From a virus, in UHGV virus genome UHGV-1461890: a stretch of 41,432 nt of DNA. One strand, given 5' to 3'. The notes under the pieces are model-generated. The model saw only the letters and a list, made by a program, of their open reading frames with translations, did no database searches and was not told the origin of the DNA. The position numbers were made by a program, and so were the translations under genes. Below are positions 33,855-34,430 of the stretch, in pieces; within the stretch, counting starts at the first letter, position 1; each line of letters starts with the position of its first letter.

Positions 33855-34430
33855 TTAATCGTCTTTTATAAAGTGATTAAAAACTAAGTAAAAAAATAAT
33901 ATTACTATTCCTACTAAAAAGAAAATTTTTGTTAATATTCCTGAGTAAGAATCCATAACGATATTTCCTATTACATCAATCCACAATAACAACAAAAAAT
34001 ATCCAACAACTTTTAATAAATCTTTATTTTGCAATATTTTTTTTAAAACACTTGTTATTTTATCTTTTATACAAAAATTTGTAATCTTACTTTCGCCATA
34101 TAACACTCGGCGGTGAATCTTTTGAAAAAGCTTAGATTGCTCCATTTCTTCTAATTTTACTTCTAACTGTTTAATCTCTTTATCTAAAGCAGAATCTAAA
34201 GCAACTCTACTTTTTACAATATCAATTGTTTTTTGAGAATGTTGTGTATAGCTAATATTGCGAAAAAGACCAGTATATTCTCTTTTTTTATACTCTGCAT
34301 TTAAAAGTTCGTGATATACATCCTGATATTTTTTATAAGCAGCCTTTTCGTTATCATTTTTTAAATAGTCTTCAACATTAGTAAAACGAAAAAATTCTTG
34401 TATATCATCGATGTCAATTCTTTCACTCAT
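33855..34430 (-). CDS. membrane protein with cytoplasmic coiled-coil N-domain and two C-terminal TM helices (candidate superinfection-exclusion/abortive-infection type moron)
   Basis: Hydrophobic segments VVGYFLLLLWIDVIGNIV and IFFLVGIVILFFYLVF; AGGGGA SD; sits between HTH regulator and integrase. Confidence 0.5.
   Translation of the reverse strand: MSERIDIDDIQEFFRFTNVEDYLKNDNEKAAYKKYQDVYHELLNAEYKKREYTGLFRNISYTQHSQKTIDIVKSRVALDSALDKEIKQLEVKLEEMEQSKLFQKIHRRVLYGESKITNFCIKDKITSVLKKILQNKDLLKVVGYFLLLLWIDVIGNIVMDSYSGILTKIFFLVGIVILFFYLVFNHFIKDD

Follow-up and report, generated by a model that had tools for sequence, protein, structure and literature searches.

The − strand gene at 33855–34430 of the virus genome UHGV-1461890 raises the question of what a small membrane protein does in the lysogeny module of a temperate phage. 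A sequence-only reading of the locus had proposed that this gene, which lies among regulators on the side of the genome that carries the repressor and the integrase, is a candidate exclusion or abortive-infection (Abi) factor encoded by the prophage. The whole stretch of 41,432 nt (the window) is considered here together with related loci from other phages, which are designated by L numbers.

Genome, gene and lysogeny-side row

The window encodes a terminase, a P22-type portal, a BppU baseplate protein, an Amidase_3/SPOR endolysin, YqaJ/RecT recombination genes and a serine integrase, and it has the appearance of a complete temperate phage genome. A GGCTCT/GGCGAT/GGCTAT hexamer repeat, encoding Gly-Ser/Asp/Tyr, is shared by both ends (1–50 and 41380–41432); the contig is probably a circular genome that was broken by assembly in a repetitive coding region. 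A giant + strand ORF (15917–27265; 3782 aa, 27% of the genome) carries an ART-PolyVal ADP-ribosyltransferase domain at residues 2188–2354 (E 2e-21), by which it is classed as a 'polyvalent protein', possibly one that is injected with the DNA. On the same strand, a 64-aa ORF with two hydrophobic stretches (30987–31181) ends 2 nt before the start of the endolysin gene and is a holin candidate by its position; no Pfam holin match was found in the window, this ORF included. The 191-aa product of the gene at 33855–34430 was itself considered as a class II holin (two transmembrane (TM) segments, N-in/C-in) and rejected, since the gene is ~2 kb from the endolysin gene (31183–31893), on the other strand and beyond the integrase, and since related phages have separate Pfam holins (Phage_r1t_holin in L006, Phage_holin_4_1 in L103).

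The locus at 33855–34430 is a real, selected gene. Its coordinates as first read from the sequence agree exactly with the ORF list (− strand, ATG start, 191 aa, stop codon at 33855–33857), and a Shine-Dalgarno-like AGGGGA, read from the sequence at 34437–34442 on the same strand, stands 6 nt 5′ of the ATG and overlaps the TAG stop (34441–34443) of the upstream HTH gene. A chance ORF or a mis-called gene in AT-rich DNA might be suspected from the very low G+C content of the gene (24.8% vs. 38.5% for the window) and from a database annotation that goes no further than 'hypothetical protein', but such an explanation has practically no chance of being right: about 8.8% of codons would be stops at 24.8% G+C, so that 191 open codons are expected by chance with p ~2e-8; the Shine-Dalgarno sequence is good; synteny is conserved; and full-length homologues at 35–67% identity, with dN/dS of 0.25–0.33, indicate that the protein is under purifying selection. 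The idea of a non-gene was ruled out on this conservation and dN/dS. The ORF list holds no competing + strand ORF of at least 40 aa at this locus, and no Rfam or tRNA match was found there.

The row to which the gene belongs runs, on the − strand, from a CI-like repressor through a conserved spacer of 337 nt to a 141-aa HTH protein, the 191-aa protein, an 80-aa Cys-rich protein and a serine integrase, and it bears out the earlier description of the gene as co-oriented and tightly packed in a lysogeny-side operon. The CI-like repressor (35204–35626; 140 aa), which matches Pfam HTH_3 and Phage_CI_repr as well as PHROG repressor families, has an HTH without an S24 peptidase domain; a Cro-like regulator (35791–36045, + strand; DUF739/HTH by Pfam) is encoded divergently. 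The XRE-type HTH protein (34441–34866; Pfam HTH_3, 2e-10) has a leucine-zipper-like C-terminal half with weak bZIP/HALZ matches, and the 191-aa gene follows it after 10 nt. On the other side, the Cys-rich ORF (33597–33839; four CxxC motifs, an acidic tail and, in Pfam, a weak Zn-ribbon match only) overlaps the start of the large serine integrase (32111–33607; 498 aa; Pfam Resolvase, Recombinase and Zn_ribbon_recom; PHROG 95, 5e-99) by 11 nt. The gene had been placed between the HTH regulator and the integrase; the HTH flank stands, while the Cys-rich gene intervenes on the integrase side, so that gene and integrase do not touch.

The HTH family comprises at least 655 homologous clusters of uniformly ~142 aa, many of them on 40–45-kb contigs, and it is kept in related prophages whether or not they carry genes in the slot before the integrase (see below); judged from this distribution, it is a conserved backbone gene of the phage group. 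Variants of the HTH/zipper protein in which a C-terminal TM segment follows the zipper are encoded at L001 5298–5816, L010 1050–1472, L015 4034–4480 and L037 3299–3724, and these would be membrane-anchored XRE-type HTH proteins. The Cys-rich protein shows 81–89% identity in L006, L008 and L013 (dN/dS 0.06–0.07) and was met only alongside serine integrases, for which it may serve as an accessory or directionality factor.

The intergenic control region between the CI and HTH genes (34867–35203) was examined by alignment, promoter scan and motif search. Within it, positions 34941–35132 share 91.6% identity with L006, vs. ~76% for the flanking coding DNA. A strong + strand promoter-like sequence (TTGACA-18-TAAAAT, 34978–35007) lies inside this spacer and is followed by a GAAC-N4-GTTC palindrome (35015–35026), which we take to resemble the Gram-positive LexA box; the arrangement of promoter plus box recurs in 6 of the 10 related loci examined. 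On the − strand there is a weak candidate promoter (TTGGTT-17-TAAAAT, 34967–34939) in a block that is near-invariant across four phages. The promoter scan and motif search found no convincing σ70 promoter on the operon strand, so that expression of the 191-aa protein in the lysogen is an assumption; a scan found no − strand terminator after CI, so that read-through from the CI promoter is possible. Downstream of the LexA-box promoter, a small + strand ORF of 58 aa (MSNNLIELLSIILESGNPEQA..., 35122–35298) with a strong Shine-Dalgarno sequence and no Pfam match is convergent with CI and overlaps its 3′ end; L001, L098, L100 and L101 have equivalents of 51–83 aa in which an (E/D)NxNPE motif is conserved. 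Because CI lacks an S24 peptidase domain, this ORF is a candidate SOS-controlled antirepressor.

Predicted architecture and superfamily membership

The 191-aa protein is predicted to consist of a cytoplasmic helical domain of ~112 aa that is tethered to the membrane by a C-terminal hairpin. The AlphaFold2 model (mean pLDDT 74.6, from a 9-sequence alignment) is all-helical. The N-domain (residues 1–112; 34095–34430), which is delimited by the modelled helices, by invariant columns and by hhalign, has helices at 7–16, 26–60, 66–97 and 100–111, the second and third of which form a long hairpin, and a subfamily-invariant block (E97-Q-S-K-L...I105-H106); a further helix spans 121–134 and the TM helices span 136–160 and 165–188. 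This domain had been described as a coiled coil; its helical character is upheld, and on the AlphaFold2 model, a predicted antiparallel helical hairpin is the better description. A lysine-rich linker follows (residues 113–140; 34011–34094), which contains 7 K+R, evolves fast (dN/dS 0.45–1.7 over residues 113–137) and corresponds, in the hhalign register, to the N-terminus (MKEKL...) of stand-alone proteins of ~100 aa that are described below.

The two-helix membrane hairpin (residues 141–185; 33876–34010) is supported by hydropathy, AlphaFold2 and hhalign. Kyte-Doolittle hydropathy places TM1 at ~141–159, the loop DSYSG at 160–164 and TM2 at ~165–185, the segment limits being approximate, and AlphaFold2 agrees with these two C-terminal helices, which were part of the original reading. 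Since there are 7 K+R in the flank before TM1 and none in the 5-residue loop, the positive-inside rule predicts an N-in/C-in topology, and only ~5 residues are predicted to face outward. No signal peptide able to export the 135-residue N-terminal domain was found; the N-terminus (MSERIDIDDIQEFF...) is hydrophilic, and C119 is the sole Cys.

A word-indexed search with the protein returned 9 clusters at 40–65% identity, all metagenomic, and the family profile, run exhaustively as an HMM against 1.84 billion representatives, returned 8. Nothing rose above noise in Pfam, PHROGs (no family at E ≤ 0.1), NCBIfam or PADLOC; the sole match in PADLOC-DB v2 was SspC (16.8 bits, to a helical stretch of a 1097-position model), which was treated as noise. 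Relatives were not found in GTDB species genomes or IMG/VR by pattern/tblastn scans, or in INPHARED phages by tblastn; the lysogeny region had no megablast match in INPHARED, and fold searches with both models gave no informative match. The remote homology search that had been proposed for this gene therefore came out divided, yielding no family or fold and, via hhalign, membership in an undescribed superfamily.

The 281-aa slot gene of L098 (L098_281) aligns with the linker and hairpin of the 191-aa protein (hhalign, 93.5%), and a widened-alignment search gathered at least 103 superfamily clusters. About one third of the 103 are stand-alone polytopic proteins of ~100 aa with the module LPFVMIG...VFWIWGLVCAIxGxQDxWAIxYY (14 invariant columns in 32 sequences); the remaining clusters carry very diverse N-terminal helical extensions of 60–290 aa. 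When the profile of the present type (A1) was compared with that of the 32 stand-alone members (A4), residues 115–189 corresponded to positions 1–61 of the module (hhalign, 96.7%, E 3.8e-10), and 13 N-domains of the present type matched 12 long-form N-regions over 106 columns (95.7%, E 8.9e-9). Because both halves match, the protein is taken to be a compact member of the long form; it lacks the last TM segment and the invariant WIWGLVCAIxGxQD block of the module, and it has no charged spacer. These profile alignments place it, in compact and truncated form, within an undescribed superfamily of phage membrane proteins encoded close to the integrase.

Names obtained from cluster look-ups for superfamily members were uninformative ('hypothetical protein' only). 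Seven other members had no match in PHROGs or Pfam, and the best score among them, that of P0153 to phrog_1039 'immunity to superinfection' (E 0.028), was not significant. The commonest stand-alone member, P0215, is found in 149 index blocks, and one phage contig that carries it belongs to GCA_019971335.1. Its gene follows CI after a 350-nt gap and precedes a tyrosine integrase, and a separate Pfam holin is present in the lysis cassette of some of these contigs. P0014 occupies the same slot and has no TM segment. In P0167 (388 aa), a homologue of the acidic soluble protein (113 aa) that L098 encodes in the slot is joined to a long-form superfamily protein; the L098 counterparts of its two halves lie at 3941–4282 and 4294–5139, and the fusion hints that these adjacent genes work together.

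Full-length relatives of the integrase (≤68% identity) are found in gut MAGs from animals and humans (Oscillospiraceae, Eubacteriales, 'Flemingiibacterium' and Acutalibacteraceae), which indicates a likely host range in the gut Clostridia, and terminase relatives are human-faecal phage contigs. These relatives point to carriage of the superfamily by temperate phages of gut Clostridia with hosts of the Oscillospiraceae/Eubacteriales type.

The predicted architecture would suit an Abi effector whose N-domain senses infection and whose hairpin oligomerizes, depolarizes the membrane and kills the cell before rival phages are released, along the lines of the models for RexAB or Sbash gp30/gp31. A cytoplasm-facing, sensor-like domain is joined to a C-terminal membrane hairpin; TM1 bears a polar stripe (D152/N156/D160, at i, i+4 and i+8), the positions of which are mostly polar in the alignment of two-TM homologues, one having Gly at the first; the superfamily is modular, a single membrane module being combined with very diverse N-extensions, in the manner of sensor-effector defence proteins; and prophage Rex-like systems beside repressors have been documented (PMC6426596). 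We nevertheless consider this reading unlikely, if deserving of attention: the stand-alone 100-aa forms are accompanied by neither a sensor nor a partner gene in the slot, no neighbour resembles RexA/DUF4747, PADLOC gave nothing but noise, the 191-aa protein has only two TM segments and is missing the conserved core of the module, TM segments are absent from P0014, and a pore-former that is always active would endanger the lysogen.

The slot before the integrase

Family members lie just upstream of the integrase in all contexts with enough flanking DNA, except L012. This address, between the repressor-side regulators and the integrase, is represented by the window, L001–L011, L013, L095, L098 and L103–L110, and the family occurs there with both serine and tyrosine integrases. 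If X denotes the family member, the order is CI, an HTH-with-TM protein (172 aa), X and a tyrosine integrase in L001–L005; CI, a 545-nt non-coding gap, X, the Zn-ribbon protein and a serine integrase in L006/7; an unrelated partial gene, X, the Zn-ribbon protein and a serine integrase in L008/9; and CI, an HTH-with-TM protein (140 aa), X and a serine integrase in L010. In L013, CI and the 172-aa HTH-TM protein are followed by a TM-less member with a SHOCT-like tail, the Zn-ribbon protein and a serine integrase; L095 has CI, an M78 protease, X and a tyrosine integrase, and L103–L110 have CI, a gap, the 100-aa form and a tyrosine integrase. The part of L006 from which the HTH gene is missing (5720–6000) holds ~300 nt of non-coding DNA upstream of X, in which direct repeats of two kinds occur, about four of each (CAAGTTTGC-like and GATAAAATTYGG-like); these repeats may be regulator binding sites.

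Other genomes have different contents at this address, or none. The slot is empty, with the HTH gene abutting the integrase, in L025/26, L034, L059 and L101. It holds an unrelated, lipoprotein-like protein of 120 aa in L016, a 145-aa soluble protein and a 172-aa multi-TM protein in L022, a 118-aa protein with three TM segments in L047, a 70-aa tail-anchored protein and a 135-aa protein with four TM segments in L100 (25–28% G+C vs. 38%), and proteins of 113 and 281 aa in L098. Across the genomes compared, the slot is thus dispensable, hypervariable and enriched in low-GC membrane proteins or lipoproteins. Because related prophages have an empty slot, the 191-aa protein is not needed for lysogeny, and the earlier remark that it has no obvious role there is supported by those prophages in which the HTH gene directly abuts the integrase.

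The same comparison bears on two readings that tie the protein to its upstream neighbour. As a membrane tether or partner of the HTH/zipper regulator or of the integrase machinery, it could tune integration, excision or induction; its gene and that of the HTH protein are tightly coupled (10 nt apart, the Shine-Dalgarno sequence overlapping the HTH stop), members of the family often follow HTH genes, some of which encode a C-terminal TM segment (L001, L010, L013), and they lie just upstream of the integrase wherever the flank suffices, except in L012. However, the HTH family has at least 655 clusters vs. ~14 for the subfamily of the 191-aa protein, the HTH occurs without this protein and the family without the HTH (L006, L095, L103), the slot is empty in related prophages, and the integrase may be of either the serine or the tyrosine type; such a role in lysogeny control is quite improbable. 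A function as integrase accessory was disfavoured on the same occurrence with both integrase types and on absence from close relatives. A type II toxin-antitoxin-like pair, in which an upstream XRE antitoxin and a downstream membrane toxin would stabilize the prophage, is suggested by the classical order of an HTH_3 gene and, 10 nt on, a small membrane protein gene, but homologues also stand alone after 350–545-nt non-coding gaps or after an M78 protease, and we regard the proposal as very improbable indeed. It was rejected because the pairing is not conserved, each gene occurring independently.

The 191-aa gene evolves 2–6 times faster than its neighbours: in the same comparisons, dN/dS is 0.25–0.33 for this gene, 0.06–0.07 for the Zn-ribbon gene, 0.05–0.07 for YqaJ, 0.06–0.08 for RecT, 0.14–0.17 for CI and 0.09–0.15 for the integrase. 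The sequence-only reading had argued from position that genes placed like this one are often lysogen-expressed morons that protect the host from other phages, and that argument is strengthened by the hypervariable slot, by the fast evolution of the gene and by the Sie-like gene of Tuc2009 and orf203 of Sfi21, which occupy the same slot. As far as sequence and position indicate, the protein would be an accessory ('moron') membrane protein of the lysogeny module, for which expression in the lysogen and a protective role are a reasonable prior.

The same signatures (variable slot, low GC, membrane location) would be expected of a protein for lysogenic conversion unrelated to phage defence, one that alters the physiology of the host envelope through, for example, bacteriocin immunity, an effect on a transporter, or regulation of division or surface structures, and nothing in the sequence of the protein is specific to phage. 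The same-slot genes in the retrieved Gram-positive phage models, on the other hand, are annotated as exclusion or immunity genes (including PMC3952083), and fast evolution together with diversification of the N-domain suggests an arms race; we give conversion of this kind a small but appreciable chance.

Proposed superinfection exclusion and known systems

The reading that we prefer, tentatively and with somewhat less than even confidence, is by analogy that of a moron membrane protein that excludes superinfecting phages at the DNA-entry step. The protein would be expressed from the prophage with the repressor-side operon and would exclude superinfecting phages at the cytoplasmic membrane, most likely through interference with trans-membrane DNA delivery, as for P22 SieA; the cytoplasmic N-domain would give specificity or regulation, for example by contact with ejected phage proteins or with a host membrane partner. 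A block of DNA entry is favoured over a Rex-like Abi mechanism because the stand-alone forms of the superfamily lack a partner or sensor gene. What argues against exclusion is that, in the Gram-positive Sie proteins examined, the anchor is N-terminal and the domain external, the opposite of the arrangement predicted here. Since the core of the module has been lost in the branch of the 191-aa protein, and since P0014 has no TM segment, the membrane module would not be the active part there; this suggests that activity in this branch resides in the N-domain, a situation that neither the exclusion nor the Abi model explains well.

A broader version of exclusion, which we consider distinctly unlikely, holds that the superfamily as a whole consists of exclusion proteins that act from the inner membrane face, with N-domains that recognize ejected proteins (tape-measure or 'polyvalent' proteins) and a module that gates or aborts DNA entry. 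If true, this would be an inner-face exclusion mechanism distinct from that of the externally acting Sie/Ltp proteins of Gram-positive phages. Uncultured gut Clostridia have abundant temperate phages, hardly any of whose accessory genes are annotated, and the superfamily provides an operational handle: a family (at least 103 clusters) whose genomic address is fixed and whose membrane module is recognizable. If its members exclude phages, they would constitute a Sie/Abi class for a major gut lineage and would help to predict, in microbiome data, host range and the competition between phages; should their function be another, the slot would still be a useful marker of lysogenic-conversion cargo in phages of gut Clostridia.

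Accessory membrane proteins in an integrase-proximal slot of Gram-positive temperate phages are a known kind; the sequence superfamily is undescribed, and no homology of the 191-aa protein to a known Sie or Abi protein, a PHROG 'superinfection' family or a PADLOC model was found. Sie2009 of the Lactococcus phage Tuc2009, grouped here with the Sie proteins of lactococcal P335 phages, is likewise a small membrane-anchored protein (173 aa vs. 191 aa) encoded between the integrase and repressor genes and co-oriented with them, but it has one N-terminal TM segment (17–35) and an external C-terminal domain, whereas the present protein has a cytoplasmic N-domain and a C-terminal hairpin; Sie2009 also shows no GC depression, and BLASTP gave no match between the two at E ≤ 10. 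In the Streptococcus thermophilus phage Sfi21 the order int, orf203 ('immunity region'), metalloprotease, CI and cro places orf203 in the slot of the 191-aa gene, and this order is exactly mirrored in L095 (int, the family member P0010, M78 protease, CI, cro); orf203 is anchored by three N-terminal TM segments and exposes its C-domain outside, so that its architecture is the reverse of the present one, and there is no sequence similarity. Ltp of TP-J34 is an externally tethered lipoprotein of the lysogeny module that is transcribed from the prophage and blocks DNA injection (PMC3952083), while the 191-aa protein has no signal peptide or lipobox cysteine.

λ RexAB and the Rex-like gp30/gp31 of mycobacteriophage Sbash are expressed in the lysogen, linked to the repressor, and comprise membrane and cytoplasmic sensing components (PMC6426596); the Sbash model serves as the analogy for the Abi reading. 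Both are two-protein systems with a 4-TM channel protein and a DUF4747 partner, in contrast to the single polypeptide with two TM segments considered here; the neighbours of the latter match only HTH, Zn-ribbon-like and recombinase families in Pfam, with no DUF4747 (RexA-like) protein among them. T4 Imm is a polytopic inner-membrane exclusion protein. [quoted passage not shown] Homology of SieA to the 191-aa protein or its superfamily was not detected through PHROGs, and SieA differs in its Gram-negative host, its three TM segments and its location elsewhere in the P22 genome. It is, however, like the present protein a small, prophage-encoded integral membrane protein without a signal sequence, and its N-terminal extensions parallel the short and long forms of the superfamily; as analogies go, SieA is the closest functional counterpart for a single small polytopic protein.
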